DNA of 56,821 nt from positions 1-56,821 of the forward strand of contig JAHIMK010000069.1 in assembly GCA_018896675.1 (NCBI GenBank). The letters are read 5' to 3'. Numbering within the stretch: the first letter of the stretch is position 1; every line of letters starts with the position of its first letter. A program made the position numbers and the translations under genes. Below, piece by piece: positions 11 through 39,703 of this stretch. Below the pieces are notes generated by a model, which saw only the letters and a list, made by a program, of their open reading frames with translations, ran no database searches and had not been told where the DNA came from. The DNA is from Nanobdellota archaeon. GTDB taxonomy: Archaea > Nanobdellota > Nanobdellia > SCGC-AAA011-G17 > GW2011-AR17.

Positions 11-3000
11 TTGACAACTGAAAACTTAACAGTATATGTAACTTCAAATGACAATGATTCTGATGCTGTAACATTAGTTTATGATTGGAGAAAAGATGGA
101 ATTTCCGACGCTGTATTGAACATGCCGTTTGATGTGAATGGCAGCAATGGGAATACTTCTAATTTAAAAGATTATTCAAGTTATAGTAATAATGGAACAT
201 TAGGTAATGGCTCAGCAAATACAAGACCAAGATGGAACGCATCTTGTAATACTTTCAGTGATTCAGGTGGATGTTATGAGTTTGATGGAATTGATGATTA
301 TATTGGTATTACCTCTTCTGATGCGACTGCTCTGAAAAGTAATATAAGCACTATATCTCTATGGACAAATATTAAGAAAGTAGGTCCAAATATATATGCC
401 GAATTATATGTTGTAGGTGGTTTATCAGGTACGGGATTGATATTTAGAACTACAAACATCGGATTAGTTGCCAACGGAGATTTCTATAATATTAATGTTC
501 CTATAATTTTATCGTTTAATAATTGGTATCATGTTGTTGCTGAAATAAATAGGGATACAAATAATTTTACTGTTTATGTAAATGGAACATATATCGGTTA
601 TGATAACTTTACAGGATATACTCCTACTGCAACTGCCATAAAAATAGGGAGTAGATCTGTAACGGGTAACTCCGGTGACTTTATGAATGGCTCCATCGAC
701 CAAGTACAAATATGGAATAGAAGTTTATCTACTTCAGAAATTGCTATGCTTTACAATAACGGAGCAGGAATGTATAATAGGACACATTCTGATGCAACTT
801 CAAAAGGAGATACTTGGTATGCAGTTGTAACTCCAGTTGATGCTTATGAAGAAGGTGAACCTTATAATTCAAATAATGTGACTATTGAAACTTCTGTAGC
901 AACTGTTAGTTTAACTTCACCATTAGATGGATGGTATGTAAATTCAACAGCTAAGTTTGAATGTTTGGCAACAAGTGCTATTCCAATAACTTCAGTAAGC
1001 TTGTACCATAACAATACTGAAACTTGGCATAGTAATTCAACAATTACTTCATCAGCTACATCTGTAATTGCACACTTTACTGTTACTGGATTAGCTACTA
1101 ATAATTTTGATTGGAGTTGCAGAGCTTGTGATGCTACTGATTGTTACTTTGCTTCAACAAATAGAACTTTACATGTTGATGTAACTAATCCTGATATAGA
1201 ATTTGTAGCTCCTACTGCTGAAAATAATACTAAAGTTGCTACATTTAATAATTACAATTATGTGAATGTTTCTGTTTCAGATGCTTCAAATAATTATTCA
1301 GCATTTGTTGATTGGAATAGGAGCTTAGTTGGTTATTGGCGTTTTGAAGAAAATTATGATGATACCTCTACTTGGAATAACGATGGAACTTGCACAGGAA
1401 CTACTTGTCCAAATTTGACAACGGGAATGAGAGGTAAAGCTTACAAGTTTGATGGTGTGGATGATGTTATAAATCCTATTAATTTCCTTAATTTTAGTTA
1501 CTCCAACTATTCAGTAAGTGCATGGGTTTATGCAGGGTGGACAGACCAACCATTTGGGATTACAACAATAATTACTTCAGGATTTGGAACTTCAAATACT
1601 GGTTTTGTATTCTTTAGAATAAATTCTTCGAATCAAATTTACCTACAAACTCGTGTTCCACCAAATGGAGGATATGTTGGATTTGGTAAAGTAGGATTAA
1701 CATCAGATACATGGCATCATGTAGTTGGAACATTTGCATACAAAACTAATACTACAACATTATGTATAGACAATTCATGCACAAGTTCAACAGCAAGAGG
1801 GCAGTATTTGGATCCTGTATTTAATCAAAATATTAAAATAGGAGCCAAAACCACAAACACTTTCTTTAATGGTACAATAGATGAAGTAATGGCATGGAAC
1901 AGAGAACTTTCTTTAGAAGAGATTGGCTCCATTTACAACGCAGGTATTTACAAATTAGCTCACAACTTTACTGACTTAAATCCAGGAACATACACTTACA
2001 AAGCTTATGTTGTTGATCAGGCTGGTAACTTGAATGAAACAGAGCAAAGAAAATTTATTGTAAACAGTGAACCTACTGTAACCTCTGCAATATTAAACTC
2101 AACATTTGGAACTAATTTGACAACGGAAAACTTGACAGTTTATGTAACATCTAATGATAATGATTCTGATACTGTAACTTTAGTTTACGACTGGAGAAAA
2201 GAGGGAGGTTCAGATACAATATTAAACCTGCCATTTGATGTGAATGGTTCAAATGGAAATACAAGCAATATCAAAGATTATACAACAGATAGCCATAATG
2301 GAACATTGGGAAATGGAACCATGGGGACTGAACCTATATGGAATTCTAGCTGTAATGCTTTCAGTGGTTCTGGCGGCTGTTATGAATTTGATGGAATAAA
2401 CGAGGGATTAACATTTAATTACGATTTTGCGGATACAGATATAGCTGTTGGTGCTTGGTTTAATGCAAAAGAAGTTTCTGGAGGGAGCAAAGTTATTTTT
2501 GATAAAAATTGGGGAAGATTAAGTTTATATATTGCTAATTCAGATATTTACTTTGGATATTATAATGGTTCTCCTAATTCAATTGTTTCAGTTGGAGATA
2601 TTTTATCTAAAGATAAGTGGCATTATGCAGTCGGGGTTCTTGATGATGAGAATAAAGTTGCCAAAATCTATTTAAATGGCACTTTAATCGCTGAAGAGAC
2701 ATATGTTGGAAATTTAGATTTAGGAAGTAATAGGGTTTCTATAGGGAGTTCATATTGGGGTTCAGCAAATTTCTTCAACGGCTCAATTGATCAAGTACAA
2801 GTTTGGAATAGAACTTTATCTGCAGATGAAATTGTTATGTATTATAATTATGGATACAACAGAACACATTCTGATGCAACTTCTAAAGGAGACACTTGGC
2901 ATGTTGTTGTAACACCTGTTGATGCTTATGAAGAAGGAGAACCAGTAGCAAGCAATAATGTAACTATTCAAACTATTGGGACTGATGTAACATTAATTGA

Positions 3001-5100
3001 TCCTCAAAATGGATGGTATGTAAATAGTACTGCTAAGTTTGAATGCAGTGCAACTTCAGACATACAATTAGTAAATATTAGTTTGTATCATAATAATACA
3101 GGAACATGGGAGAATAATGTTTCAATAACTACAACTGCTACTTCAACTATTGCACACTTTACTGTAACTGGATTAACTACAAATAATTTTATATGGAACT
3201 GTAAGGCTTGTGATAATGAAGACATTTGTACGTTTGCTACAGCTAATAGAACATTACATGTTGACGTTACTAATCCTGATATTGAATTTGTAGCTCCTAC
3301 TGAAATTAATAATACTTTAGTTACATCATTTGATAATGAAGCTTATGTAAATGTTTCAATTACAGATGCATCAAACAATTATTCTGCATTCATCGACTGG
3401 AACAGGAGCTTGGTTGGTTATTGGCGTTTAGAAAATAATAATGGAACTTTCTTTGAAGACTCATCAACTTGGGGCAACAATGGAACTTGTTCAGGTTCAA
3501 CTTGTCCTAACTTGACAACGGGAATGAGAGGTAAAGCTTACAAGTTTGATGGATCTGAGGATTATCTAGATATCACTGAATCAGGCACGACTAGTTTAGA
3601 CTTAACTTTAAAGGGAACCCTTGAAGCATGGGTAAAGTCAGATATTTCTGTGCCTGGAGAGTCTGGACTGCCATATTACAGAGGAATAGTAGTCAAAGCT
3701 ACAGGTGGTGCAGCCTCGACTTTTACATACGGCTTGGATTGGTATGGTCAAACAAGCGGAAGCTTAAGAGGCATTTTAAGTAATGGTGCTAGTTCAGATA
3801 GTATTACTTATCCAATAAATCTAGAGATAGGCAAATGGTACCATGTTGCATTTACTTGGAATGGAACACAAAAGAAACTTTATCTGGATGGAAGAGAATT
3901 CAGCAGCAACACCCAAACTTTAAATATTCAACCGACAGACCATCCTGTCCGCATAGGTACAGCATGGGGAACTGGCTTTTATATGCATTGGAATGGCACA
4001 ATAGATGAAGTTATGATTTGGGATAGGGCATTATCTGCTCAAGAAATAAACGCTTCATACAATGCTAACATTTGGAATTTAGAAAACAATTATGATAACT
4101 TAGAACCAGGAACATACACTTACAAAGCTTATGTTGTTGACCAAGCTGGTAACTTGAATAATACAGAGCAGAGAACTTTCATTGTAAATAGTGAGCCTAC
4201 TGTAACCTCTGCAATATTAAATTCAACTTACGGTACTAACTTAACAACTGAAAACTTGACAGTTTACACCACTTACAATGACAATGATTCTGATGCTATA
4301 ACTTTAGTTTATGACTTCAGGAAAAATGGAATTTCAGATGCTGTATTGAATATGCCGTTTGATGTTAATGGTTCAAATGAAAATAGAACTAATGTAAAAG
4401 ATTATAGTACATTTGGAAATAATGGTTCGTTATATGGTGCTATCTGGAATGCAAGTTGTAATGCTTTCTCTGGTTCTGGCGGCTGTTACGAGTTTGATGG
4501 TATTAATGATTATATTGCAATACCAAATGGTCAAGAATTTAATTTTACAAACAACATCACATTAAGCGCATGGATAAAATTTAATGATTCAGTGACTGAA
4601 ATAAATAGGATTGTAGGAAAAACGAGTGATGTTTATTCTTTAGCAACATATCAAGGAAAAATAATATTTTACTTAAATACTAATGATTGTTATGTAATAT
4701 CAAATACAATCTATACTAATAACCAATGGCATTATGTAGTAGGAATATTTGACACAACAAACAACGCAACACTATACATTGATGGGCAACAACCTGCTAT
4801 GAGTAAAGTAAATATAAATTGTACTAATACTCATGCGAATGATAATCCATTTTATATAAGTTATTTAACTTCGGGTAGTTTCAACGGCTCAATAGACCAA
4901 GTACAAATCTGGAATAGATCTTTATCAACTTCAGAAATTTCAATGTTATATAATTATGGATACAACAGAACACATTCTGATGCAACTAATTCTGGTGAAT
5001 CCTGGAAAGTTGTTGTAACACCTGTTGACCAATATGAAGAAGGAACTCCAGGAACAAGCAACACTGTAACTATTAACACGCCGCCGCCAAAAGTTACGTT
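11..5100 (+). repeat. In-frame tandem super-repeat (periods 2106 and 2124 nt; third copy partial) inside the giant surface-protein gene
   Basis: The window's first 10 nt, cggtactaac, recur exactly at 4231-4240 before the third unit. Long near-identical stretches recur, e.g. acaacgggaatgagaggtaaagcttacaagtttgatgg and ggaacatacacttacaaagcttatgttgttga. Confidence 0.85.
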
Positions 5101-5830
5101 AGCAGAACCAATTAATGGCAACATAACTATGACTAATAGGTCAGTTAAATTTAGATGGTTGCCTGTAACAGATGCTGACGGAAATACAGTTACATATAAT
5201 CTTTCAATAAAATGTTATTCAAGTTTAGGAGGTTCATGCAGTCCAAGCGATGACAGAGGTTATGCTGGAATAACTGGAACAAGTTATAACTTAACTGAAA
5301 CTAATGAATTAAGATACTTAAGAGATGATAATTATTATTATAATTGGACTGTTACTGCTTATGACACTTATCAATATGGTGAGATTAGTAATCAGTCTAA
5401 CTTCTCACTAATTTCTGAAGTTATTATTACCATGTCTGTAGATGGTGTTGACTTTGGCAATATGGGCAATAATCAACAAAAGAATACGACTACTAGAAGC
5501 CCTGCACCATTGGAAATACAAAACTTAGGAAATGTACTTACAGACATAAATTTATCCTCAGCAACTGAATTGTTCCAGACTGGTTCTTTCCCTGGTTCTA
5601 ACTTCCAATACAGAATTAATACAACTCCAGGATATACTGCTGCATTCAATGTAGCTGGAACTCAAACTTCATGGACAAATGTTCCAATTGTTAATGAAAC
5701 TATCATAAGCAGTTTGAACTATAGTACTGGAAGCGACAAGGCAGACATAGACATCCATGTTCTGGTTCCAATAAATGAACCTTCTGGAGACAAAAGCTCG
5801 ATATTAACATTCATAGGGTGGTATGCATGA
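11..5830 (+). CDS. Giant secreted/surface protein built of LamG (concanavalin A-like lectin) and Ig-like modules; 5' end lies outside the window
   Basis: 1939-aa ORF open to the window edge. LamG C-terminal signature (FNGSIDQVQIWNRSLS..EI / NGTIDEVM.W.R.LS..EI) occurs five times. Super-repeat begins TENLTVY.TSNDNDSD at nt 11, 2117 and 4241. Very dense N-x-S/T sequons. Confidence 0.85.
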   Translation: MTTENLTVYVTSNDNDSDAVTLVYDWRKDGISDAVLNMPFDVNGSNGNTSNLKDYSSYSNNGTLGNGSANTRPRWNASCNTFSDSGGCYEFDGIDDYIGITSSDATALKSNISTISLWTNIKKVGPNIYAELYVVGGLSGTGLIFRTTNIGLVANGDFYNINVPIILSFNNWYHVVAEINRDTNNFTVYVNGTYIGYDNFTGYTPTATAIKIGSRSVTGNSGDFMNGSIDQVQIWNRSLSTSEIAMLYNNGAGMYNRTHSDATSKGDTWYAVVTPVDAYEEGEPYNSNNVTIETSVATVSLTSPLDGWYVNSTAKFECLATSAIPITSVSLYHNNTETWHSNSTITSSATSVIAHFTVTGLATNNFDWSCRACDATDCYFASTNRTLHVDVTNPDIEFVAPTAENNTKVATFNNYNYVNVSVSDASNNYSAFVDWNRSLVGYWRFEENYDDTSTWNNDGTCTGTTCPNLTTGMRGKAYKFDGVDDVINPINFLNFSYSNYSVSAWVYAGWTDQPFGITTIITSGFGTSNTGFVFFRINSSNQIYLQTRVPPNGGYVGFGKVGLTSDTWHHVVGTFAYKTNTTTLCIDNSCTSSTARGQYLDPVFNQNIKIGAKTTNTFFNGTIDEVMAWNRELSLEEIGSIYNAGIYKLAHNFTDLNPGTYTYKAYVVDQAGNLNETEQRKFIVNSEPTVTSAILNSTFGTNLTTENLTVYVTSNDNDSDTVTLVYDWRKEGGSDTILNLPFDVNGSNGNTSNIKDYTTDSHNGTLGNGTMGTEPIWNSSCNAFSGSGGCYEFDGINEGLTFNYDFADTDIAVGAWFNAKEVSGGSKVIFDKNWGRLSLYIANSDIYFGYYNGSPNSIVSVGDILSKDKWHYAVGVLDDENKVAKIYLNGTLIAEETYVGNLDLGSNRVSIGSSYWGSANFFNGSIDQVQVWNRTLSADEIVMYYNYGYNRTHSDATSKGDTWHVVVTPVDAYEEGEPVASNNVTIQTIGTDVTLIDPQNGWYVNSTAKFECSATSDIQLVNISLYHNNTGTWENNVSITTTATSTIAHFTVTGLTTNNFIWNCKACDNEDICTFATANRTLHVDVTNPDIEFVAPTEINNTLVTSFDNEAYVNVSITDASNNYSAFIDWNRSLVGYWRLENNNGTFFEDSSTWGNNGTCSGSTCPNLTTGMRGKAYKFDGSEDYLDITESGTTSLDLTLKGTLEAWVKSDISVPGESGLPYYRGIVVKATGGAASTFTYGLDWYGQTSGSLRGILSNGASSDSITYPINLEIGKWYHVAFTWNGTQKKLYLDGREFSSNTQTLNIQPTDHPVRIGTAWGTGFYMHWNGTIDEVMIWDRALSAQEINASYNANIWNLENNYDNLEPGTYTYKAYVVDQAGNLNNTEQRTFIVNSEPTVTSAILNSTYGTNLTTENLTVYTTYNDNDSDAITLVYDFRKNGISDAVLNMPFDVNGSNENRTNVKDYSTFGNNGSLYGAIWNASCNAFSGSGGCYEFDGINDYIAIPNGQEFNFTNNITLSAWIKFNDSVTEINRIVGKTSDVYSLATYQGKIIFYLNTNDCYVISNTIYTNNQWHYVVGIFDTTNNATLYIDGQQPAMSKVNINCTNTHANDNPFYISYLTSGSFNGSIDQVQIWNRSLSTSEISMLYNYGYNRTHSDATNSGESWKVVVTPVDQYEEGTPGTSNTVTINTPPPKVTLAEPINGNITMTNRSVKFRWLPVTDADGNTVTYNLSIKCYSSLGGSCSPSDDRGYAGITGTSYNLTETNELRYLRDDNYYYNWTVTAYDTYQYGEISNQSNFSLISEVIITMSVDGVDFGNMGNNQQKNTTTRSPAPLEIQNLGNVLTDINLSSATELFQTGSFPGSNFQYRINTTPGYTAAFNVAGTQTSWTNVPIVNETIISSLNYSTGSDKADIDIHVLVPINEPSGDKSSILTFIGWYA

Positions 5831-7026
5831 ATTACAGAAAATTAGCACTAATAGTATTCATGATGGTTCTGCTTAGCGTGAGCGTTGCTGCCTTAGGTGT
5901 AAGTCCAGGAAGAACTACAATTACATTTGAACCTAATGCCAAACATACTATTGAATTTGATATCATTAATGACTTGCATAAAGCAATGGATATAATGTTA
6001 AAAGTTGAAGGTGTTACTGATGAAATATTGACATTAAATGAACAACAAATACATCTTGGAGCAAATGATGAAAGGCGTAAGATAAGTTATACAGTTAAAT
6101 TGCCTAATAATTATGATAGTCCTGGAATTAAAGAAATAAGGATTGTTGTTGTTGAAATGCCAGATCCAAATTCGCAACAGCTTCAAATAAGTACATTGAT
6201 AGGAGTTATTTCACAATTAAGAATTAAAGTTCCTCAAGAAGGCAAATATGTAAAAGTTGATGATTTGGAAATAAGTGAAGCAATGCCTGGCGAGACTGTA
6301 TCTTTTAGATTGCCTATTGAGAATTTGGGTACAGAAGATTTAAGCAATGTAAAAGCAACTATTAAGATTTATGATCCTGAAAATAAATTAGTTGGACAAG
6401 TTTTAACTCAAGAAGTTTCATTAAATTCTAAAAGAAGAGAATTGTTAATTGCTTCTTGGAAAGCTGATGTAAATAAAGGAAGATACAAGGCAGTTGCTGA
6501 AGTAACTTATGATGGCTCTTTTAAAACTACTGAAAAAGAATTTAATGTAGGTGATATTGGTTTAGAAATATTAAGAATCTTTACAAAGAATTATGAGCTT
6601 GGCGACATAGCCAAGATGGATGTTGTTTTAAGAAGCACTTGGAATGAAATTATCAAAAATGTATTTGCAGAATTAGTTATTAAAGATAAAGAGGGTGACC
6701 CTGTTGGTGAATTAAAAACAGCTAACAGAGATTATGCACCACAAGAAGAAGCTGCAATTTCAGCCTACTGGGACACTTACGGATTATCAGAAGGAACATA
6801 TTATGGTAATTTAATAGTTTATACTGGAGCAGGAACATCAATTGAAAAACAATTCCAAGTAACTTTAGGCTTGACTCAATTAACAGCAAGCTTATTGGGA
6901 GCAACTGCTTATGCTACTTTAGGAGATGCACCAACTAATAAAGGAACAATAGTAATGGTGGCTACTGTAATACTGTTCTTAGTAAACCTTATATGGTTTA
7001 TATTTTTCAGGAAAAAGAAGAAATAA
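5818..7026 (+). CDS. Secreted, C-terminally membrane-anchored protein with CARDB-like beta-sandwich repeats (probable start ATG 5827)
   Basis: Signal-peptide-like N-terminus MNYRKLALIVFMMVLLSVSVAALG. C-terminal TM followed by RKKKK. ATGA start/stop overlap with the giant ORF suggests co-transcription. Confidence 0.7.
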   Translation: MVCMNYRKLALIVFMMVLLSVSVAALGVSPGRTTITFEPNAKHTIEFDIINDLHKAMDIMLKVEGVTDEILTLNEQQIHLGANDERRKISYTVKLPNNYDSPGIKEIRIVVVEMPDPNSQQLQISTLIGVISQLRIKVPQEGKYVKVDDLEISEAMPGETVSFRLPIENLGTEDLSNVKATIKIYDPENKLVGQVLTQEVSLNSKRRELLIASWKADVNKGRYKAVAEVTYDGSFKTTEKEFNVGDIGLEILRIFTKNYELGDIAKMDVVLRSTWNEIIKNVFAELVIKDKEGDPVGELKTANRDYAPQEEAAISAYWDTYGLSEGTYYGNLIVYTGAGTSIEKQFQVTLGLTQLTASLLGATAYATLGDAPTNKGTIVMVATVILFLVNLIWFIFFRKKKK

Positions 7027-7048
7027 TCTGAAAATCTGTTCAGAAAAC
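7024..7048 (+). repeat. Copy 0 of a dif-like palindromic core (TAATCTGAA-AATCTG-TTCAGAAAAC) overlapping the stop codon of gene 5818-7026
   Basis: Imperfect inverted arms of about 10 nt flank a 6-nt spacer. The same site recurs at 8248, 9838, 10981 (half) and inverted at 48401. Confidence 0.6.
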
Positions 7049-7069
7049 AAGACAAGAAAATAAATCATC

Positions 7070-7471
7070 TCACTTAAGCCTATTAGAAATCTCTTTAGTT
7101 GATATCCCAAAACCAATCTTAAACAGTAAATCTTCATATGTCCATAGTTTAATGCCTTTCATTAAACAGAGTGCAATAAAATCTTCATCTTTCTCATGCT
7201 TGCCTAATAGTACTTTTGCTTTAGGAAGAAACTGTTTGTATTCATTTAGTGAAACAAGCTTGATAATATCAAACATTATGGATGCTAATTCATTAAATTT
7301 ACTTTCTGAAAGCCCAGACTTCTTTAAAATCTCCTCTTTATTATTAAGGAATTCTTCTTTTAATCTTGCTGGAGCAAATATAACTAACTTAATATCAAAC
7401 ATTAGCTTTAATATATCTCCTTGTGAAATTAATATTCTAAATAATACGTTAGAATCCAGTACAACTTCCAC
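7070..7471 (-). CDS. vapC: PIN-domain ribonuclease toxin (VapC-like)
   Basis: N-terminal VVLDSNVL acidic motif, central EE, and C-terminal DEDFIAL...WTYED pattern typical of PIN domains. Directly abuts an upstream small antitoxin-like ORF. Confidence 0.7.
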   Translation of the reverse strand: MEVVLDSNVLFRILISQGDILKLMFDIKLVIFAPARLKEEFLNNKEEILKKSGLSESKFNELASIMFDIIKLVSLNEYKQFLPKAKVLLGKHEKDEDFIALCLMKGIKLWTYEDLLFKIGFGISTKEISNRLK

Positions 7472-7714
7472 TTATATCAATCCTTCTTTCTTTAATTGCT
7501 TGTGCATAGATGATTTAACTTTCTCTGATAAGAGTCCTGCATCTTTCTCAGTAAACTTGGACTTAGATACAATTTTAATTAATTTTTCCAATGCTTTTGA
7601 TCTTTCTATATCTGTCAATAATTTCTCTCTAGCCGATTCAGACCAGTTTACCCAAGCCAATGATTTCATTTCTGCTTTAATGTCAGCAGGTATTGCAAAT
7701 GTTACACTTGCCAT
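7472..7714 (-). CDS. Antitoxin-like small protein (VapB-like) preceding the PIN toxin
   Basis: 80-aa ORF ending one nt before the PIN start. N-terminus MASVTFAIPADIKAEM resembles RHH/AbrB-type antitoxin strands. Confidence 0.55.
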   Translation of the reverse strand: MASVTFAIPADIKAEMKSLAWVNWSESAREKLLTDIERSKALEKLIKIVSKSKFTEKDAGLLSEKVKSSMHKQLKKEGLI

Positions 7715-7870
7715 TTATAATTCACCCCTTGCGACCATTTCTTCAAATTTCTTTAATTGCTTGACCCTGCGGATGATAAATTCCCTTAGTACTTCCGACC
7801 ATTTCATATGCGGTAATGCATCCATTTTTTTCTTCAAATCATCAGGTATAGATAATGTTACAGTTGCCAT
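7715..7870 (-). CDS. Second small antitoxin-like ORF (51 aa), N-terminal paralog of 7472-7714; below the ORF-track size cutoff
   Basis: My translation is MATVTLSIPDDLKKKMDALPHMKWSEVLREFIIRRVKQLKKFEEMVARGEL. Its TAA stop directly abuts the next ATG. A TTTATAAA-type TATA box and ATGTTAACAT palindrome lie upstream (~7918-7935). Confidence 0.45.
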   Translation of the reverse strand: MATVTLSIPDDLKKKMDALPHMKWSEVLREFIIRRVKQLKKFEEMVARGEL

Positions 7871-8033
7871 TTTTACCATATTGATACCTCCACAGTATTA
7901 TGTTAATGAACATAAATATGTTAACATTTATAAACCTTTTGATGCTAAAAAGTATAATTGTAGGAAAATGAAACAGCATTAAGGAATAAGAATATGAAGC
8001 TTGAGTAAAGCCCTTAAATTATTACTTGCTTCT

Positions 8034-8099
8034 GCCAAAAAAGGATTTAACCAATAACAACAATGAAAACAAAATAAGGAAAGCTTCTATAAAACTTAA
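8034..8099 (-). repeat. Cassette-boundary repeat, inverted orientation (sub-family B)
   Basis: Reverse complement reads TAGAAGCTTTCCTTATTTTGTTTTCATTGTTGTTATTGGTT...GGCAGAAGCAAGT. It matches the repeats at 51902 and 53786. Confidence 0.8.
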
Positions 8100-8251
8100 C
8101 AAAATTAACTGCTACATTATTAGGTGCAACAGCTTATGCTACTTTAGGAGATGAACCTACTAATAAAGGAACTATCTTAATGGTAGCTACTGTAGTGTTG
8201 TTCTTAGTAAACCTTATATGGTTCTTATTTTTCAGGAAAAAGAAGAAGTAA
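8096..8251 (+). pseudogene. Duplicated 3' fragment (about 50 codons plus stop) of gene 5818-7026
   Basis: Encodes LTATLLGATAYATLGDEPTNKGTILMVATVVLFLVNLIWFLFFRKKKK*, versus LTASLLGATAYATLGDAPTNKGTIVMVATVILFLVNLIWFIFFRKKKK* in the native end. No start codon or upstream ORF. Confidence 0.85.
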
Positions 8252-8273
8252 TCTGAAAATCTGTTCAGAAAAC
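8248..8273 (+). repeat. Copy 1 of the dif-like palindromic core GTAATCTGAAAATCTGTTCAGAAAAC
   Basis: Matches 7025-7048 at every position after its first base; arms GTAATCTGAA / GTTTTCTGAA(rc) flank spacer AATCTG. Confidence 0.65.
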
Positions 8274-8298
8274 TGAGCAAAAAATTAAATAGTATTTA
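8274..8298 (+). promoter_or_regulatory. Junction module CTGAGCAAAAAATTAAATAGTATTT carrying a TATA-like box (copy 1)
   Basis: Repeated at 9864 and 10999, where the TTAAATA element sits about 25-30 nt upstream of the next ATG. Confidence 0.5.
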
Positions 8299-8343
8299 TA
8301 ACTCTTCCATAAAAGGCACGAGAAAAAGCGTAAAGTTTATATA

Positions 8344-9066
8344 TTGAATATCATTATTGAGATTATAATATCAAAAATGAGATTAAAAATGGAAGTAGAA
8401 CACTCTATCATTTGTTTGCTCTTGAAAGAGCCAAGAAAGAAATTTACTATAGAAAATATAGTTAAAAAAATAAGCAGCAAAAAAGCAAAACACAGTAGGG
8501 CATCGATATTTAGATACTGTAGTAAATTACTAAAACAAAACATTTTAAAATCAAAAGACCTTGGGAGGACTAAACAAGTAACCTTAAACCTCAATAACGA
8601 TGAAACCCTTGCTTTGATAGCCTATATAGAAATAATAAATAAAAATAGGTTTCTCAAACAGTTAAATCCCGGTTTACAAGAATATTTCAAAAAATTATAT
8701 ACAAACTTCAAACAAATACATGAAGTCCATTCCATAATAATATTCGGCTCATATGCCAAAGGAAAACAAAGAGCAGAGAGTGACATTGATTTGATATTTT
8801 TAATAGGAAAACCACATATCATCCATACTGCTGAGCATATCAAAATAACTATTAAAAAAACTAAAGACTTGATTACTGCAATCACTAATGACTTAGAGGC
8901 TTATCTAGGAAAGATTAAACTTAGTCCTGTAATAATTGAACTGGAAGATTACAAAAGAGGAGTCAAAGAAAATAAAACCGATATAGTAACAGAATCATTT
9001 AAGGATCACGTCATAATTAAAAATCCTTTTAGATACTGGGAAGCAATAGCAGACGAATTAGCATGA
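8344..9066 (+). CDS. wHTH plus minimal nucleotidyltransferase (MNT-type antitoxin-like) protein; true start probably ATG 8377
   Basis: NTase signature IIIFGSYAKGKQRAESDIDLIFL (GS...DxD). TTTATATA box at ~8334-8341. 4-nt overlap with the following ORF. Confidence 0.7.
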   Translation: MNIIIEIIISKMRLKMEVEHSIICLLLKEPRKKFTIENIVKKISSKKAKHSRASIFRYCSKLLKQNILKSKDLGRTKQVTLNLNNDETLALIAYIEIINKNRFLKQLNPGLQEYFKKLYTNFKQIHEVHSIIIFGSYAKGKQRAESDIDLIFLIGKPHIIHTAEHIKITIKKTKDLITAITNDLEAYLGKIKLSPVIIELEDYKRGVKENKTDIVTESFKDHVIIKNPFRYWEAIADELA

Positions 9067-9674
9067 TACTCAAGGATATTGAAGAGGACAAGGTAATTCA
9101 AAGATTTGAAGAAATCTTTGAAAATAAGAATGAAAAACTGAGAGATACAATCTTACTAGATAATAATATGAAGAATCTCCATTCCTTATTTACGGATAGG
9201 GGCAGAAAATCCATAAAATTAGCTGATTTTCTTTACAGGTTATCATTTATGGAACATTTTGAGAAAGAGTTTTTAGATGTAATGAAACAGATAAAAATAA
9301 AATATTTTTTCAATCTTGATGAAGTATTCTATGATTGGGTCACTGAGATTGCATATTATGGTATGTACGATTTGGCAACATCTGCTATAGCCAAAGAAGG
9401 ATTTAAGTGCACTACCCATTACACTACGAGATTGACTTTAGAATATTTGTATTGTATTAAAGGAAAGGACAGAGAAAAATTGTTTAAGATTTATGATAGG
9501 ATTTTACTAAAAAGGCAATTAATCCAAGACCTCAAGAATGCTCAGGATAAGAGGGAAATAGCCAGATATAAGGCGCCTGATTTAATCTCTCAAAAAGATG
9601 CTGAAGAGATTTTGGAGGACGCCAAGGAATTTGAAAAGGAAATCTTACCGTTAATAGTAACCCCTTCATGTTAA
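9063..9674 (+). CDS. Putative HEPN-like partner of the nucleotidyltransferase
   Basis: Operonic overlap with the MNT gene. The helix ATSAIAKEGFKCTTHYTTRL resembles the HEPN pattern A..AL...G....SH. I could not find a clear Rx4-6H motif. Confidence 0.35.
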   Translation: MILKDIEEDKVIQRFEEIFENKNEKLRDTILLDNNMKNLHSLFTDRGRKSIKLADFLYRLSFMEHFEKEFLDVMKQIKIKYFFNLDEVFYDWVTEIAYYGMYDLATSAIAKEGFKCTTHYTTRLTLEYLYCIKGKDREKLFKIYDRILLKRQLIQDLKNAQDKREIARYKAPDLISQKDAEEILEDAKEFEKEILPLIVTPSC

Positions 9675-9805
9675 AGCTTTAGAACTTTTGGTCGTTAATC
9701 AGCTAAAGATGCAATTGCCTACAAAAAGAAAAACAAAGAGACTATGGCAGCCTCCAAAAAACAATAAGCTTAAATTAGTATTAAAAAGATACTGATTAGT
9801 ATTAA

Positions 9806-9841
9806 ATATGGTTCTTATTTTTCAGGAAAAAGAAGAAGTAA
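9806..9841 (+). pseudogene. Second, shorter duplicate of the last 11 codons plus stop of gene 5818-7026
   Basis: atatggttcttatttttcaggaaaaagaagaagtaa is identical to 8216-8251. Confidence 0.8.
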
Positions 9842-9863
9842 TCTGAAAATCTGTTCACAAAAC
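9838..9863 (+). repeat. Copy 2 of the dif-like palindromic core (one mismatch: TTCACAAAAC)
   Basis: GTAATCTGAAAATCTGTTCACAAAAC. Confidence 0.6.
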
Positions 9864-9888
9864 CGAGCAAAAAATTAAATACTATTTC
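9864..9888 (+). promoter_or_regulatory. Junction promoter module (copy 2), TATA-like TTAAATA about 25-30 nt upstream of ATG 9905
   Basis: CGAGCAAAAAATTAAATACTATTTC, versus copies at 8274 and 10999. Confidence 0.5.
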
Positions 9889-9904
9889 TTTATTTAGAAT
9901 AAAA

Positions 9905-10885
9905 ATGAAAGCATTAACAAAAAACAATTATGCTGCATTACTTAAGGATATAAAGTCAATTCTGGAAAAAGGATTATGTAGGGCTTACAAGGCAGTAGAC
10001 AACATCAAGGTGCAAACCTATTGGCAGATTGGTGAAAGAATTGTGAGAGAAGAATTAACCCATAAAGATAGAGCAGATTACGGTAAGAAAATTATAAATA
10101 ATTTGGCAAAGGATTTAGGTATTAATAGACGTCTATTTTACAGAATAGTTAAATTCTATAGGCAATATCCAATTGTGGTGACAGTGTCCCCACAATTGAG
10201 TTGGTCGCATTATGAAGTTTTAATTGGCATGGAAAATGATGGGACTAGGAAATTTTACGAAATTCAATCCGTAATAGAAAGCTGGAGTGTTAGAGAACTT
10301 AGGAAAAGAATAACAAATGACGAATATGGGAAAATAAAGAAAACTGGGCAATTATTAACTAAACCGCCTTTACAACTTTCTTCTTCTGAAGAAGTTTTCA
10401 AAGAAAGCTATAACTGGGACTTCATCTCTTTAGAAGAAAACCACACTGAGAAACAACTTGAAAATGCTCTCTTAGACAATATCCAAAGAGTTTTACTGGA
10501 GTTTGGTAAGGGATTTGCCTTTTTAGCAAGGCAGCAAAAGATTCTTCTCAATAACTAATGGCATAAAATTGACCTTCTTTTTTACCATATTTTGCTAAAA
10601 TGTTACATCATAGTGGAACTAAAAGCAAGAGAGCTAAATCCTGGAGATATAGAGCAAGTTACGAAATATTTAACTTATTTTAGAGAGAAGAAGGTAACAA
10701 ATGACAGTGATCCTATTGCTTTAATCATCTGCAAAAGTCATGACAAGGTTGATGTCTATTATAGTGCTGGAAAGAACAAGGAAGACATTTTTGTTGCAGA
10801 ATACAAAACTAAGCTGCCAAGTGAACAAGAGATAAAGTTAAAACTAAATCAAACAAGAAGTGAAGCCTCCCAGTTTGACAGCTAA
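9905..10885 (+). pseudogene. DUF1016/YhcG-type PD-(D/E)XK nuclease interrupted by one in-frame TAA
   Basis: ORFs 9905-10558 and 10592-10885 share a frame (offset 687 nt). Read-through gives ...FLARQQKILLNN*WHKIDLLFYHILLKCYIIVELK, the canonical DLLFYH...ELK nuclease core of this family. Confidence 0.75.
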
Positions 10886-10904
10886 ATAGAAAAATAAAAT
10901 ATAA

Positions 10905-10971
10905 ATTTGCCTCTGCCAATAAATAATTTAACCAATAACAAACAATTAAAACAAAATAAGGAAAGCTTCTA
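10905..10971 (-). repeat. Cassette-boundary repeat, inverted orientation (sub-family B)
   Basis: Reverse complement reads TAGAAGCTTTCCTTATTTTGTTTTAATTGTTTGTTATTGGTT...GGCAGAGGCAAAT. Confidence 0.8.
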
Positions 10972-10980
10972 TAAAACCTA

Positions 10981-10998
10981 AAAATCTGTTCAGAAAAC
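10981..10998 (+). repeat. Half copy of the dif-like core (spacer plus right arm only), fused directly to the boundary repeat
   Basis: AAAATCTGTTCAGAAAAC; the left arm is replaced by ...GCTTCTATAAAACCTA. Confidence 0.55.
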
Positions 10999-11023
10999 TG
11001 AGCAAAAAATTAAATAGTATTTC
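10999..11023 (+). promoter_or_regulatory. Junction promoter module (copy 3) upstream of ATG 11041
   Basis: CTGAGCAAAAAATTAAATAGTATTT is identical to 8274-8298. Confidence 0.5.
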
Positions 11024-11040
11024 TAAAACAATAACTATTA

Positions 11041-11367
11041 ATGGAAACAAAAGGATTAAATAAAACTTGTTGTATATATTTATATAACATGAAAACAAAG
11101 AAAAAAAACATATTGCATTACCCCCAACTAGATACGGTTCTTATGGTAGAAGAATTTATTAAAGAATATGGTGGAGAGTTCAAAAAAAGGAGTTTATGGG
11201 AGCATCTTCCTAAAAAAACGATGTACCAAACTTTTTGTGTAATTTTTGATTATCTTTTGGAATCTAATAAAATTGCTATAGATAAAAAAGGTAAAATTTG
11301 CTGGATTTGGGACCCTGAAGGGGTTAAAAAGTACCTCTCTAAAACACACCTCAATTGGAGAAAATGA
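11041..11367 (+). CDS. Hypothetical protein, positional antitoxin candidate for the RelE-like ORF
   Basis: 108-aa ORF overlapping the next ORF by 13 nt. No motif recognised. Confidence 0.4.
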   Translation: METKGLNKTCCIYLYNMKTKKKNILHYPQLDTVLMVEEFIKEYGGEFKKRSLWEHLPKKTMYQTFCVIFDYLLESNKIAIDKKGKICWIWDPEGVKKYLSKTHLNWRK

Positions 11368-11696
11368 AATCAAATGTTATTTTGGGAAATGAAAGATTAA
11401 AAAATTCATTTAATAAATTAAAAACTCTAAAAATAGAAGATAAACAATTATATAGCTGGTTAGTTAGAGCATTTAAAGATTTAGAAGAAGATGCTTTTAT
11501 AGGAATTCAAATTCAAAAAAAATTAATCCCTAAAGATTACAAACCAAAATTTGGAAAAATAGACAACCTTTGGAAATATAATCTTCCTAATGCTTGGAGA
11601 TTAATTTATACTATCAAAAAAGATCAAATAATTGTTTTATCTATAATTTTGGAATGGATGAGCCATAAGGAATATGAAAGGAAATTTAATTATTAA
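11355..11696 (+). CDS. RelE/ParE-superfamily toxin-like protein
   Basis: C-terminal pattern NAWRLIYTIKKDQIIVLSIILEWMSHKEYERKF resembles the RelE/StbE core (YR.IY.I....I.IL.I.H...Y). Confidence 0.5.
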   Translation: MEKMKSNVILGNERLKNSFNKLKTLKIEDKQLYSWLVRAFKDLEEDAFIGIQIQKKLIPKDYKPKFGKIDNLWKYNLPNAWRLIYTIKKDQIIVLSIILEWMSHKEYERKFNY

Positions 11697-11698
11697 AA

Positions 11699-12718
11699 AT
11701 GATTAAGAATTTAAGTAAAAAGGAAATTGAAGATATTAATATTGCTAGAAAAAGAAATGAAAAGATAAAAAAGATACATGATAAAAATCTCTTTATGAAC
11801 CTTGATGATTTAAGGTTTGCAACTAATGAAATAGTTGCTAAATATAGGGCATCTAGATTAAAATGTAAAGTCCTTATTGAAATTGGTTCTGGTGTGGGTT
11901 TTCAAACATTTGCTTTTGCCAAAGTTTGTAAAAAAGTGTATGCTGTTGAGATTGATGAAAGAAAAATTAAATATGCCGAGGAAAATGCTAAAATTTTGAA
12001 GTTGAAGAATATTGAATTTGTTAATGATGATGCTTTGAAAATTGATTTGAAAAAAGCAGACGCAGTTTTTTGTGAAACTGCCAGAAGTCCTGAATCTTCT
12101 GAAAGAAGTTTAGCTGAATTAGAACCGAATATTTTTAAATTTTTAGAAAAATACGGCAAACTAACTGATAAGATTTGTATTGATGTTCCTTCACAACTTA
12201 AGAAGATAGATTTAGACTGTGAAAAAGAATATCTTTCTGTTAACAATGAATTGAATAGATTAAATTTATTTTTTGGTTCTTTAAAGAAAGTAAATAAGTC
12301 AGCAGTTGCTTTACCAGGTAATCATAGGCTTGAAGAGACTAATGAAAAAGCCAAAAATTCTAAAGCCTTAAAATATCTTTATGATATCGACGGCGCAGTA
12401 TTAAAGGCGGGATTAATTAATGAATTAGCAATACAAACAAAAAGTTTCATTTTTACTGAAAGCTTGTTAACTTCCTTAAGATTAGTTAAAAGCCCGTTTT
12501 TTAAAAGCTCCTTTTTAATTTTAAATAAATGTAAGGAGTTTGATGAAGTTATTGAATATTTAAAAGGAATTGATTATGGCAAAATAATTTTAAGACAAAA
12601 AATAGATCCAGATAAATATTGGAATGAAAGAAAGAAATACGAAAATAAATTAAAAGGAAATAAAACTTGCTACTTATTTGTTTTTAAAAATAATTTCTTA
12701 ATAGCACAAAAGCTTTAA
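11699..12718 (+). CDS. Class I SAM-dependent methyltransferase
   Basis: Motif I LIEIGSGVGFQT, followed by acidic VYAVEID and NDDAL motifs. Confidence 0.6.
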   Translation: MIKNLSKKEIEDINIARKRNEKIKKIHDKNLFMNLDDLRFATNEIVAKYRASRLKCKVLIEIGSGVGFQTFAFAKVCKKVYAVEIDERKIKYAEENAKILKLKNIEFVNDDALKIDLKKADAVFCETARSPESSERSLAELEPNIFKFLEKYGKLTDKICIDVPSQLKKIDLDCEKEYLSVNNELNRLNLFFGSLKKVNKSAVALPGNHRLEETNEKAKNSKALKYLYDIDGAVLKAGLINELAIQTKSFIFTESLLTSLRLVKSPFFKSSFLILNKCKEFDEVIEYLKGIDYGKIILRQKIDPDKYWNERKKYENKLKGNKTCYLFVFKNNFLIAQKL

Positions 12719-14517: not shown

Positions 14518-15354
14518 ATGAAATTAACAAATAAAGCTATTGAAGATGTTGTAATTATGTTAGCTGGAGAGGATATAACTCCTTTAGTTTATCTTCTTAA
14601 GGGCAAAAACAATTTTTCTGAATTTAAATTGGCTGAAAGAATGAATATAACTGTTAATCAAGTAAGAAATATGCTATATAGATTACATAAACATAATCTT
14701 GTATTCTTTACTAGAAAAAAAGATAAGAAAAAAGGATGGTACATATATTATTGGACATTAAATATGAAAAACATCAAAGATGCCAGGTTTGAATTAAAGA
14801 AAAAACAATTAATAGAATTTAAGAACAGATTAGATAAAGAAAGTTCAAGTCACTTTTTTGTTTGCCCTAATAAATGTTCAAGACTAACTATGGAAAATGC
14901 TTTAGAAGTAGATTTTAGATGTCAAGAATGTGGCAGTTTAATGGGGCAACAAGATAATCAAAAAACTGTTGAAAATGTTCGAAAAAGAATAGTTGAATTA
15001 GAAGCAGAAATAAAAGAAGAAGAATTAGAAAGAGCTGAAGAATTACAAGAAAAACTAAAGAAAGCTGAAAGAGCAGAATCAAGAAAAAAAGCAATTGCTA
15101 AGAAAATATCAGATGAAAAGAAAGAAGTTAGAAAACAATTAGCAGCTAAAAAGAAAAAAGCACTATCTAAAAAGAAAGTTGTTAAAAAAGTGATTGCTAA
15201 AAAGAAAGTTGTTAAAAAAGTGGCTACTAAAAAGAAGGTTGTTAAAAAGAAAGTTGTTAAAAAAATAGCTACTAAAAAGAAAGTTGTTAAAAAATCTGTT
15301 AAGAAAAAAGGACTTCTAAAAAAATTTAAAAAAATTTTAAAAAAGAAAAAATAA
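14518..15354 (+). CDS. tfe: Transcription factor E (TFIIE-alpha homolog) with a Lys-rich repetitive C-terminal tail
   Basis: N-terminal wHTH (KLAERMNITVNQVRNMLYRLHKHNLV) and Zn-ribbon CPNKC...CQECG. Tail is KKKVVKKV repeats. Confidence 0.8.
   Translation: MKLTNKAIEDVVIMLAGEDITPLVYLLKGKNNFSEFKLAERMNITVNQVRNMLYRLHKHNLVFFTRKKDKKKGWYIYYWTLNMKNIKDARFELKKKQLIEFKNRLDKESSSHFFVCPNKCSRLTMENALEVDFRCQECGSLMGQQDNQKTVENVRKRIVELEAEIKEEELERAEELQEKLKKAERAESRKKAIAKKISDEKKEVRKQLAAKKKKALSKKKVVKKVIAKKKVVKKVATKKKVVKKKVVKKIATKKKVVKKSVKKKGLLKKFKKILKKKK
15168..15300 (+). repeat. Tandem ~30-nt coding repeat (aaaaagaaagttgttaaaaaagtgNNtgct) encoding KKKVVKKV(A/I)(A/T)
   Basis: Four to five consecutive copies are visible in the sequence. 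Confidence 0.8.
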
Positions 15355-37999: not shown

Positions 38000-38785
38000 A
38001 TGACAAAGTTCATTGCCATTATGGCTGGGAAAGGGGGTACTGGTAAGACAACTACTTCTGTTAATTTAGGTGCTGCATTAAGTTATTTTGGTAAAGATGT
38101 TATTGTTGTTGATGCTAACTTAACTACGCCTAATGTTGGATTACATTTAGGAGTTCCTGTTGTGCCTATACATTTGCATCATGTTTTACAAGGTAAGAAT
38201 GAAATTCATGAAGCTGTTTATATTCATCCTGCTGGCCTTAAGATTGTTCCTGGTAGCATAGCTTTAAGTGATTTGCATATAACTAACCCTGAAAAGTTAT
38301 CTTCTTCTTTGAAAAAATTAAGAAAATTGAAACCTGACTTTGTTCTTGTTGATGGTGCTGCGGGATTGGGCAGGGAAGCTTTGAATGCCATCAGTGCTGT
38401 TGATGATTTGTTGATTGTTACTAATGCTGAACTGCCAGCCATAACTGATGCTATGAAAACTATTAAGTTAGCTGAAGATTATAAGAAAAATGTTATAGGT
38501 GTTGTTTTGACTAAGACTGGACAGAGCAATTCTGAAATAACTATTAGAAGTGTAGAGTCAATGTTGGAAAGACCTGTTATTTCTGTAATACCTTATGATG
38601 TTTCTATAAAGCATGCATTGAAAATGAAAGATGCTGTTGTTTTCACGCATCCTAGGTCTAAACCTGCTGTTAGTTATAAGAAGTTAGCGGCTGCATTAAT
38701 TGGGCAAGATTATGTAGAAGACTATAGTGTTAAAGTTGAGAAGAAAGGTTTTTTAGTTAGTTTGTTTAAGAAGTTCTTTAAGTAA
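38000..38785 (+). CDS. minD: MinD/ParA-family P-loop ATPase (archaeal MinD type)
   Basis: Deviant Walker A AGKGGTGKTT, and VLVDGAAG Walker B. Confidence 0.85.
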   Translation: MTKFIAIMAGKGGTGKTTTSVNLGAALSYFGKDVIVVDANLTTPNVGLHLGVPVVPIHLHHVLQGKNEIHEAVYIHPAGLKIVPGSIALSDLHITNPEKLSSSLKKLRKLKPDFVLVDGAAGLGREALNAISAVDDLLIVTNAELPAITDAMKTIKLAEDYKKNVIGVVLTKTGQSNSEITIRSVESMLERPVISVIPYDVSIKHALKMKDAVVFTHPRSKPAVSYKKLAAALIGQDYVEDYSVKVEKKGFLVSLFKKFFK

Positions 38786-38810
38786 TTATTTAGTGGTAAT
38801 TATCATAAGA

Positions 38811-38818
38811 TTTATAAA
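38811..38818 (+). promoter_or_regulatory. TATA box TTTATAAA 25-32 nt upstream of ATG 38843
   Basis: Archaeal TATA consensus at leaderless spacing. Duplicated at 39912. Confidence 0.5.
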
Positions 38819-38842
38819 GTAAGTGTTTCTTGGAATTTAACA

Positions 38843-39703
38843 ATGGAAGTTACTAAAGAACAATTAGATTTTTTTGAATCAGAAGAGGAGACAGAAGAAC
38901 AAGTAGTTAGTTTACAACCTCAAGTTTTAGAAGAAGATAATACAGAGACTTTAGATGTTAAATTAGAAAGAACTTTTACAAGCGAAGAAGTTACAAGCAT
39001 AATCTTAGAAGCAAGTAATATGCAAATTAAGCAGGAATTTGAACTAAAAAAGAAAAAGTTTAATGAAGAAACAGCACAAGATCAAGTAGATATAAACAGC
39101 AATCCTAACCAATATTCTATTGATAACATTTATGAGCTTGCAAGAAAATATGATATTCCAGAGCATTATATACCTAAGGCTATCAACAATCACAAGCTAT
39201 CCTTGGAAGAGCAGATATTAGATATTAAAAGATTTAATATTTCAAGAGTAACATCCAGGAAATATAAACAATATGAAAAAGAAAAAGAAAAAGAAAAATA
39301 CAAAATCAGATTTAAGTATGAACAGGATTTAATTAAGACTCTAGAAGAAGCGTTTCCTACCGAAGAGTTCAAGGCTGAATGGCACAGAAAAATAGCCTTC
39401 TTTGGCCTTTTTCATGGTTGTTTAAATAGTTTTATATTAGACATATATAAGATAAGAGATATATCTAAAAAGAGAATTTTCAGAAAAGGTAAAAAAATAA
39501 AACGTAGTCAAAAAAAGGTTGCTTCTTTTCTTTTTTTGAAATATTATACTTCTCTGGAGGGTACAGGCAATAAATTATCTATAACAATTTACGATCCTTT
39601 ATTCCTAAGAAAATGTGGCACAATATTAGAAGAACTTAACATAGAATTCAAGCAAATTTATAAAAAAGAGAGGCATAGAATAGAATTTATTAGAGATTAT
39701 TGA
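38843..39703 (+). CDS. Hypothetical protein, member 1 of a three-gene paralog family downstream of minD
   Basis: N-terminus MEVTKEQL...ETLDVKLERTFTSEEVTSIILEASNMQ is shared with 39945 and, more distantly, 40788. Confidence 0.5.
   Translation: MEVTKEQLDFFESEEETEEQVVSLQPQVLEEDNTETLDVKLERTFTSEEVTSIILEASNMQIKQEFELKKKKFNEETAQDQVDINSNPNQYSIDNIYELARKYDIPEHYIPKAINNHKLSLEEQILDIKRFNISRVTSRKYKQYEKEKEKEKYKIRFKYEQDLIKTLEEAFPTEEFKAEWHRKIAFFGLFHGCLNSFILDIYKIRDISKKRIFRKGKKIKRSQKKVASFLFLKYYTSLEGTGNKLSITIYDPLFLRKCGTILEELNIEFKQIYKKERHRIEFIRDY

Follow-up and report, generated by a model that had tools for sequence, protein, structure and literature searches.

Tandem accretion at the 3′ ends of genes is known from ICESt1/ICESt3 and cis-mobilizable elements (CIMEs) at fda, from e14 and phage 21 at icd, and from tRNA islands. 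Two further described systems invite comparison: the Acinetobacter dif modules (pdif) with the integrative mobile elements exploiting Xer (IMEX; CTXphi/TLC, the gonococcal genetic island), and the integrons, known in archaea only since 2022, whose function depends on IntI and on attC sites that form hairpins (Ghaly et al., 2022; PMC9668308). The locus analyzed here lies at 7–11 kb of a 56,821-nucleotide (nt) contig, JAHIMK010000069.1 of assembly GCA_018896675.1. This whole stretch, hereafter the window, belongs to a Nanoarchaeota metagenome-assembled genome, has a GC content of 25–35%, and carries TFIIE-alpha, LGT, and ScpA genes, a chromosomal context. The locus is probably a strain-variable tandem array of small cassettes without an integrase gene, set between two conserved genes: one encoding a surface protein identical to KKF52_04420 (the anchor gene) and one encoding a methyltransferase. 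Each cassette runs from a right core half through (usually) a module of transcription factor B recognition element (BRE) and TATA box to toxin–antitoxin (TA) or candidate-defense cargo, then a trailer and a left core half, where the trailer may be a 70–80-nt boundary repeat, a variable-length mimic of the anchor 3′ end, or both. The attachment region would then take the form of boundary repeat, anchor-3′ mimic of variable length, core, and promoter. In its behavior the locus is comparable to an integron or an array of dif modules, and it recalls 3′-end tandem accretion, yet it falls outside both integrons and dif modules when their defining features are looked for.

The likeness to 3′-end accretion lies in att sites in direct repeat, each with a copy of the target-gene 3′ end, so that the gene itself is kept intact, in integrase-less elements potentially mobilizable in trans, and in serial insertion at the same att site. 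Such direct repeats with the target 3′ end were found at junctions J1 and J2 of the window, in contig L004 (L numbers denote the contigs compared), and in contig JAHILT010000033.1. Unlike accreted islands, the elements here measure only 1.1–1.6 kb with one operon each, no integrase-bearing family member is seen, their gene-end copies vary in length, and the promoter is placed for leaderless expression.

With integrons, the locus shares a small-cassette array at one attachment site whose newest member sits closest to the fixed end, repeated recombination sequences that are particular to the lineage, conserved at their ends and variable in the center, a cargo of mostly TA, defense, and acetyltransferase genes, and cassette turnover at the level of strains. 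The differences are these: the site overlaps a gene stop codon, whereas the integron site adjoins intI; each cassette has its own promoter, whereas integron cassettes share the Pc promoter; and the junctions carry remnants of the anchor gene. No IntI-type integrase, a tyrosine recombinase marked by the IntI-specific extra domain, was found in the window or beside the arrays examined in relatives, and the recombinase encoded at 42501-43345 reaches 206.7 bits against the integron-integrase model TIGR02249, whose cut-off is 265, with the match in two stretches. Nor do the boundary repeats form hairpins, unlike attC sites, which fold as single-stranded hairpins with imperfect inverted repeats (R″/L″ and L′/R′). 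DNA folding of six stretches on both strands gave −0.7 to −6.2 kcal/mol (z −0.7 to +1.5), and a consensus fold of 12 copies (RNAalifold) contained 0 pairs; attC-like hairpins were rejected for boundary repeats and cores alike, as no structure appeared when they were folded. Because the boundary repeats lack a hairpin and no IntI-type integrase was found, the locus is not an integron, even though a strain-variable array at a fixed site is present.

The dif modules and IMEX are likewise small, integrase-less elements, often TA modules, with sites of ~28 bp composed of two inverted arms and a 6-bp spacer, in tandem arrays that regenerate the site, and with a host recombinase presumed to act in trans. 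Whereas pdif modules alternate in orientation on plasmids, here the four cores are direct repeats on a chromosome bearing TFIIE, LGT, and ScpA genes. The site, at most a candidate dif, differs further in not being conserved in close relatives, the xerA-type gene of the window is frameshifted, and the 70–80-nt boundary repeats and the gene-end remnants are additional.

The central element of the locus is the 26-bp core. The initial annotation had described a palindromic site across the stop codon of its gene 5818-7026, here the anchor gene, with repeats at 8248 and 9838, and all three are present as placed: the stop codon TAA (7024-7026) sits within the left arm of the first copy (7023-7048), the core returns at 8248-8273, and at 9838-9863 it differs by one change in the right arm, TTCACAAAAC. 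A further copy at 10981, which had been taken for a right half only, is indeed there and is more than a half. At 10973-10998 both the spacer and the right arm are complete, and on the left stands AAAACCTAAA, which is similar to the flank found after boundary repeats in a second array at 47–57 kb; that array and the short allele described below led us to revise the half-site reading. All four cores lie on the same strand in direct orientation, and their consensus of ~21–26 bp, CT(G/A)AAAAT followed by CTGTTCA(G/C)AAAAC, overlaps the anchor stop codon. The 16-mer AATCTGTTCAGAAAAC occurs at 7033, 8258, 9848 (one mismatch), and 10983; with up to two mismatches, it has 6 matches in the window against 0.20 expected, a count reached by 0 of 100 shuffled sequences.

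The duplications are real, as three assemblies, the window contig included, agree on them. L014 (GCA_022013275.1) is colinear with 6581-11481 at 99.98% and spans all four junctions, and L015 (GCA_018898035.1) is colinear with 7138-11282 at 99.98% and spans J1 to J3. A site empty for cassettes 1–3 also exists in the population. In this short allele (L024 = GCA_018830505.1, L026, L028), the anchor 3′ end is followed by GTAACCTGAA-AATCTG-TTCAGAAAAC with the module, block 4, and the methyltransferase gene, at 99.8% identity to the window from 10975 onwards; it amounts to the array minus cassettes 1–3, and the difference is bounded exactly by cores. Block 4 stays in place, is tied to the methyltransferase gene in every assembly of the population, and has no distal core.

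The same anchor gene with its left half-site is joined to four different right partners, namely cassette 1 of the window and the DNA of L007, L008, and L009. L007 encodes an identical anchor protein, matches the window DNA at 100% as far as 7035, and departs from it within the spacer (...CTGAAAAT followed by ACTGAAG). In L008 the anchor is followed by a different nucleotidyltransferase/HEPN pair, and in L009 by a right arm of the cassette-3 type with the module TTCACAAAACcgagcaaaaaattaaatacta, a third nucleotidyltransferase/HEPN pair, and a boundary repeat as at 10899, such that the right arm and module of J2 sit directly behind the anchor gene. A scan of the metagenome collection with the 22-nt core returned only two contigs, L008 and L009, both behind this same anchor gene. 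Serial insertion at one site behind the anchor gene, as the initial annotation had proposed, is well supported by the short allele, by these alternative first cassettes, and by the hotspot in relatives. The junctions are sharply defined. The left half CTRAAAAT, whether it stands beside the anchor end or beside a boundary-repeat end, is the point at which at least five unrelated sequences start at the same nucleotide. On the left stands one of three anchor alleles (A, B, C) or a boundary repeat, and on the right one of at least six types; the two sides appear in many combinations, and the switch between them always falls inside a 20-nt stretch, TAATCTGAAAATCTGTTCA. An AAAAT cleavage motif common to all lineages (L001, L003, L004), though suggestive, is claimed for the window's own family only, as breakpoints are ambiguous by a few nt in AT-rich DNA.

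Each junction from J1 to J3 places a promoter behind its core. The 25-nt TATA-bearing module reported after core copies 1–3, GAGCAAAAAATTAAATASTATTT, is present there, at 8275, 9865, and 11000, and nowhere else in the window (3 matches vs. 0.02 expected), and its restriction to these three junctions spoke against a generic promoter or terminator. A degenerate copy, unremarked in the initial annotation, opens block 1, where the cassette-1 genes face the other way. The module, GCAAAAAA-TTAAATA(G/C), reads as a BRE followed by a TATA box. A TATA-to-ATG spacing of ~26–28 nt is the expectation for leaderless archaeal transcripts. Counted on the sequence, the TATA center lies 26.5 nt upstream of ATG 9905 and 27.5 nt upstream of ATG 11041, within 26–28 nt for blocks 3 and 4, and the corresponding distance in L009 is ~28 nt; cassette 2 has a second TATA nearer its own start.

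The other recurrent element is the end of the anchor gene. Positions 6870-7065 and 8095-8290 are 86% identical over 196 nt, and 8216-8314 and 9806-9904 are 89% identical, in agreement with the progressively shorter gene-end duplicates (156 nt, then 36 nt) that the initial annotation had located at 8096-8251 and 9806-9841. The longer duplicate translates in frame to LTKLTATLLGATAYATLGDEPTNKGTILMVATVVLFLVNLIWFLFFRKKKK and a stop, another allele of the anchor C-terminus, and the same LTATLLGATAY-coding DNA occurs in L024 as part of a genuine anchor allele. Table 1 lists these elements with their neighbors.

Table 1. Features of the cassette array, its flanks, and the related regions of the window (positions in the window)
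Feature	Position	Strand	Remarks
Anchor gene	5827-7026	+	Secreted/membrane surface protein; weak MG2/CARDB-like matches, C-terminal transmembrane helix and FFRKKKK
Junction J0 core	7023-7048	+	ATAATCTGAA-AATCTG-TTCAGAAAAC; then degenerate promoter module 7049-7065
Cassette 1 cargo	7070-7879	-	PIN_2 toxin 7070-7471; VapB-like RHH antitoxins 7472-7714 and 7715-7879
Boundary repeat, 3′ trailer of cassette 1	8026-8095	+	Reverse orientation relative to the 47–57-kb array
Anchor 3′-end remnant	8096-8251	+	156 nt, in frame, different allele; from repeat alignment and translation
Junction J1	8248-8298	+	Core GTAATCTGAA-AATCTG-TTCAGAAAAC (8248-8273) and BRE/TATA module (8274-8298)
Cassette 2 cargo	8344-9674	+	MntA-like (Polbeta) nucleotidyltransferase, start 8344 or 8389, to 9066; HEPN 9063-9674
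Cassette 2 trailer and remnant	9768-9841	+	TTAGTATTAAA motif (also in L001, L008), then 36-nt anchor remnant 9806-9841
Junction J2	9838-9888	+	Core with right arm TTCACAAAAC (9838-9863) and promoter module (9864-9888)
Cassette 3 cargo	9905-10885	+	DUF1016_N/YhcG_C PD-(D/E)XK nuclease, stop-split: 9905-10558, 10592-10885
Boundary repeat, 3′ trailer of cassette 3	10899-10978	+	Reverse orientation; also ends a different cassette in L009
Junction J3	10973-11023	+	AAAACCTAAA-AATCTG-TTCAGAAAAC and promoter module (10999-11023)
Block 4	11041-11696	+	Two small open reading frames, second weakly RelE/StbE-like
Class I methyltransferase gene	11699-12718	+	Conserved right-hand neighbor; order anchor, methyltransferase, LGT conserved in relatives
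XerA-type tyrosine recombinase	42501-43345	-	Frameshift after HPHTL (two extra bases); sole tyrosine recombinase in the window
Related first array	47041-56821	+	At least 11 forward boundary repeats between 1–2-gene cassettes (Bro-N, ORF6N, GNAT, HTH, AAA/STAND, CARF-HTH)

Boundary repeats tie the locus to the array at 47–57 kb. Their reported occurrence in reverse at two junctions is confirmed, at about 8026-8095 and 10899-10978; these two copies are 90% identical, end at exactly the same nucleotide (8095 and 10978), and are related to at least 11 forward copies at 47041-56687. There, the repeat is ~72 nt long and has two subfamilies of center between the ends ACTTGCCYCWGC and GAAAGCNNCTA, both of which contain GCCTCTRC as a direct, not an inverted, repeat. 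A variant of the core adjoins a boundary repeat at 48395-48415 on the minus strand, 40 kb from the locus. The forward orientation is T-rich, with the stops of two plus-strand genes at the repeat start (48955, 56615), and it is the A-rich orientation that most cassette genes encounter. A viral or plasmid origin was considered and set aside: the core and promoter module are absent from IMG/VR, and the 14 hits there to boundary-repeat 20–21-mers fall into two conserved contexts that begin just after an ATG, are apparently coding, and are unrelated to the boundary repeats. The single boundary-repeat match of a genome scan, in Shewanella (L010), was unrelated and taken as chance. Within the array, the cassette at 51553-51708 is duplicated at 56666-56821 with 97% identity.

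Anchor homologues were found at 32–86% identity, and the region downstream of the anchor gene is variable in all four relatives with a readable flank (L001, L003, L004, L022); L023 (P0006), whose contig ends inside the anchor gene, is uninformative. No tRNA or tmRNA gene that could serve as an integration target is present in the window or the compared loci. In L003 (anchor 63% identical), the anchor stop overlaps the methyltransferase start, and a single MNT/HEPN cassette is flanked by a direct repeat of 28 nt that copies the methyltransferase 5′ end. L022 (43%) has AbiEii/AbiEi and PIN/RHH cassettes between the anchor and methyltransferase genes, without junction repeats. L004 (52%) carries at least four cassettes downstream of the anchor (HEPN/nucleotidyltransferase, two AAA ATPases, and a nucleotidyltransferase), between which stand copies of the end of that anchor gene, AAAGAGGCAGAGAAAGCCAATAAGAARTGA, with left and right halves shared in a chain; no methyltransferase gene lies within this 11.3-kb contig. 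L020 likewise has no methyltransferase neighbor, and no junction repeats were found in L020 or L022. A third array is that of JAHILT010000033.1 (L011–L013; 22,105 bp, same accession series), in which boundary repeats of the same family number more than 15 and the final ~170 nt of an intact DUF2779 gene occur four times, once as the gene's own end and three times as junction remnants, each copy flanked by boundary repeats on one or both sides and all remnants sharing the same boundaries. It carries the same ~110-nt promoter module as 48330-48440 of the window, and its cargo includes MmeI, Dam, Bro-N, and DUF2779. Binned as a Patescibacteria bacterium of the candidate phyla radiation (CPR), this contig is either a misbinned Nanoarchaeota contig or a sign that cassettes are shared between archaeon and bacterium. 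Since anchor 3′-end remnants stand at the junctions of the window locus, L004, and JAHILT010000033.1, they are a systematic feature of three independent arrays. The anchor protein itself shows one further peculiarity in two relatives: a C-terminal extension of ~112 amino acids is fused right after FFRKR/FFKKR (L001 6292-6630, L004 5420-5770) and is 83% identical between them, against 54% for the remaining protein. It appears to be a horizontally exchanged module fused at the same point as the attachment site.

We consider it probable that two processes built the array: site-specific recombination at the core, by an enzyme provided in trans, and homologous recombination between junctions. Circular cassettes would be inserted and excised by conservative recombination between the circle and the anchor-proximal site, and the recombinase, acting in trans, would most likely be of the tyrosine type. 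New cassettes would enter beside the anchor, in the order 3, 2, 1; applied to the short allele, these insertions would reproduce every junction, including the single-base right-arm variants. First-strand exchange would fall between GAA and AAT at the spacer border of the palindrome, with AAT shared. The circle junction of cassette 3 would then join ...GGAAAGCTTCTATAAAACCTAAAAAT to CTGTTCACAAAACCGAGC, and that of cassette 2 would join the end at 9806-9847 to CTGTTCAGAAAACTGAGC..., continuing with ATAACTC from 8299. The left-half junctions to unrelated DNA (L007, 8095, 47035, 51486) have the appearance of secondary-site events, and all four share AAT before they diverge, which would fit exchange at that border. 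Homologous recombination between the repeated junctions would add shuffling and deletions. The anchor remnants would call for an extra step, either off-site recombination in a donor array or illegitimate joining.

A bolder extension, which we put forward only tentatively, is that DPANN archaea possess a previously undescribed, integron-independent cassette-capture system that uses unstructured, double-stranded sites, made up of a ~26-bp core and boundary repeats of 70–80 nt whose ends are direct repeats, to collect small defense and TA cassettes behind an anchor stop codon. Each cassette would bring its own leaderless promoter, exchange would take place between strains and between arrays, the recombinase would be encoded elsewhere, possibly as the housekeeping XerA-type enzyme, and the gene-end remnants would record how cassettes are made. 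These archaea are host-dependent and have very small genomes, and little is known of their routes for acquiring and exchanging accessory and defense genes. If a recombinase does act on the core, the locus, which behaves like archaeal integrons without IntI or hairpin sites, would show that archaea have solved cassette capture a second time and independently; it would account for the arrays of similar kind on at least three contigs of the same groundwater-type communities, offer a portable leaderless promoter of practical interest, and provide, in the anchor remnants, a record by which cassette origin could be tested directly.

Several observations weigh against site-specific recombination at the core. 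The remnant lengths (156, 36, 0 nt) differ, which precise core recombination alone does not predict. No active recombinase was identified, the sole tyrosine recombinase of the window being frameshifted in two assemblies; the palindrome is statistically unremarkable (40 vs. 29 in shuffles); the junction repeats of L003 and L004 differ in sequence and lack a clear palindrome, and L022 has none; and no circular cassette junction was observed (raw reads were not searched). In addition, homologous recombination clearly acts on the junction repeats, judging from the mosaic anchor 3′ ends of L008 and L024.

These same points feed the strongest rival, which dispenses with any dedicated site-specific system and which we regard as rather unlikely. 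Under it, DNA taken up from sister strains is joined on the left by homologous recombination in the anchor and on the right by an illegitimate join near the old gene end, whether as homology-facilitated illegitimate recombination or as Campbell-type integration of circles with junction homology; with each event the old gene end is pushed away and persists as a remnant, and later recombination between junctions deletes or shuffles cassettes. Unequal remnants are natural on this account, as is the remnant in L003, which derives from the 5′ end of the gene downstream; the remnants represent in-frame alleles of related strains, the mosaic anchor ends prove homologous exchange, junction sequences vary between lineages, no active recombinase was found, and the palindrome is not significant. 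Several features of the junctions speak against it. Two boundary repeats diverged to 90% end at an identical nucleotide, CTRAAAAT is joined to at least five partners at one position, and the block that distinguishes the long allele from the short one has cores exactly at its limits. Moreover, the core adjoins a boundary repeat in the other array without anchor homology, different cargo sits inside the same end frames in L009, and the junction remnants of JAHILT010000033.1 have uniform boundaries. Should homologous and illegitimate recombination nonetheless account for everything, the locus would still be a clean natural hotspot of defense genes with a traceable history.

A less probable rival holds that the core is the true chromosomal dif site and the cassettes are Xer-exploiting elements, similar to IMEX or Acinetobacter dif modules, inserted by the housekeeping XerA; we consider this improbable. 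Bacterial and archaeal dif sites have inverted arms and a 6-nt spacer (PMC2958812, PMC8371274), and the imperfect inverted arms of 10–11 nt with a 6-nt spacer found here (9/11 matching positions at J1) fit this architecture. Yet palindromes of the 11-6-11 form with at least 9/11 matches number 40 in the window against 29 (range 16–47) in shuffles, which is chance level in this AT-rich DNA, and the palindrome was dropped as stand-alone evidence. The divergence of L007 within the spacer and the existence of TA modules bounded by Xer sites on Acinetobacter plasmids also speak for dif, as does the type of the window's recombinase, whose best match is recomb_XerA_Arch (NF040815, 217 bits), a family conserved across Nanoarchaeota and Woesearchaeota. 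Its gene lies next to scpA, 31 kb from the locus and 4 kb from the other array, and the frameshift is present in two independent assemblies (the window and L029). No tyrosine recombinase gene was found beside the hotspot of L003, L004, L020, or L022, nor among the 10 largest open reading frames of JAHILT010000033.1. Conservation in relatives would be expected of a true dif site, which weakens the label here: the Xer homologues are 55–86% identical across the group (the intact homologue P0014 at 86%), whereas a search for exact matches only to the 16-mer of the core found none in L001–L007, and so none behind the anchor gene in L001–L004, the relatives whose anchors are 86%, 63%, and 52% identical; the site may lie elsewhere in those genomes. 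Nor is the site single in its chromosome, as dif would be; at least five copies fall within 57 kb, four at 7–11 kb and a variant at 48.4 kb, all of the former in direct orientation where dif modules alternate, and no turn in GC skew is seen at 7–11 kb (the terminus position cannot be judged from one contig). The Xer/dif-type label given in the initial annotation is accordingly not established. An IS66-family transposase gene (43578-44900) stands beside the recombinase gene.

That the repeats are a generic terminator–promoter unit reused between genes, or assembly artefacts, is largely refuted and very improbable, for although the module resembles a BRE/TATA promoter, the forward boundary repeat is T-rich with two plus-strand stops at its start, and the short-read contigs L016 and L019 break within the repeats, the module is confined in the window to junctions, core and module occur in the metagenome collection only behind this anchor gene and not in unrelated contexts, the A-rich orientation that most cassette genes meet would not terminate, the junctions hold coding-sequence remnants, and two further assemblies are colinear across them.

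As regards cargo, the four blocks had been read as PIN with two antitoxins, MNT/HEPN, a DUF1016 nuclease pseudogene, and a RelE-like pair; the first three assignments hold, the DUF1016 gene being stop-split, and the last is weak, with a RelE/StbE match at E 2.7e-4, below the cut-off. Cassette 2 matches the PADLOC candidate-defense families PDC-M05A/B and PDC-S09, and cassette 3 matches PDC-S02.

Two short motifs recur around cassettes. The GC-rich motif GTGAAGCCTCCCA lies near the ends of three different cassettes (window 10860-10885; L008 3906-3945; L004 7085-7126, minus strand). Behind it comes a short hairpin whose stem differs in a compensatory manner between L008 (CACAGC/GCTGTG) and L004 (CGCAGC/GCTGCG); the window has only a partial copy of this hairpin. 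The motif has no Rfam match; at E ≤ 1, window 6800-11800 gave no Rfam matches at all, and L004, L008, and L009 gave two chance-level hits only. A second, junction-like motif, GAT(T/A)AGTATTAAA(AA)T, occurs at window 9768-9805, L008 2755-2800, and L001 6632-6680, followed in L001 and L008 by GGACTATTCAAMTATAAATAAA and ATG. In the 86% relative it immediately follows the anchor stop, in L008 it lies upstream of a cassette, and in the window it forms the cassette-2 trailer, a distribution that hints at cassettes moving between lineages with different junction types.

Repeats of other kinds are found elsewhere in the window. The giant LamG-repeat surface protein upstream of the anchor gene (11-5830, 1939 amino acids) is built of ~2.1-kb tandem repeats that are 76–88% identical. 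L008 1-2692 matches window 2272-2403 and then, ~390 nt later, window 4881 onwards, points that are ~2.5 kb apart in the window; most of one unit is apparently missing in L008, which suggests copy-number variation between strains. The TFIIE-alpha-like gene (14518-15354) has 15-nt tandem repeats at its 3′ end (15138-15317) that encode a lysine-rich tail (AKKKVVKK...). Finally, at 38621-40301, the neighboring paralogues 38843-39703 and 39945-40763 share stretches of 84–96% identity, which suggests a recent tandem duplication.

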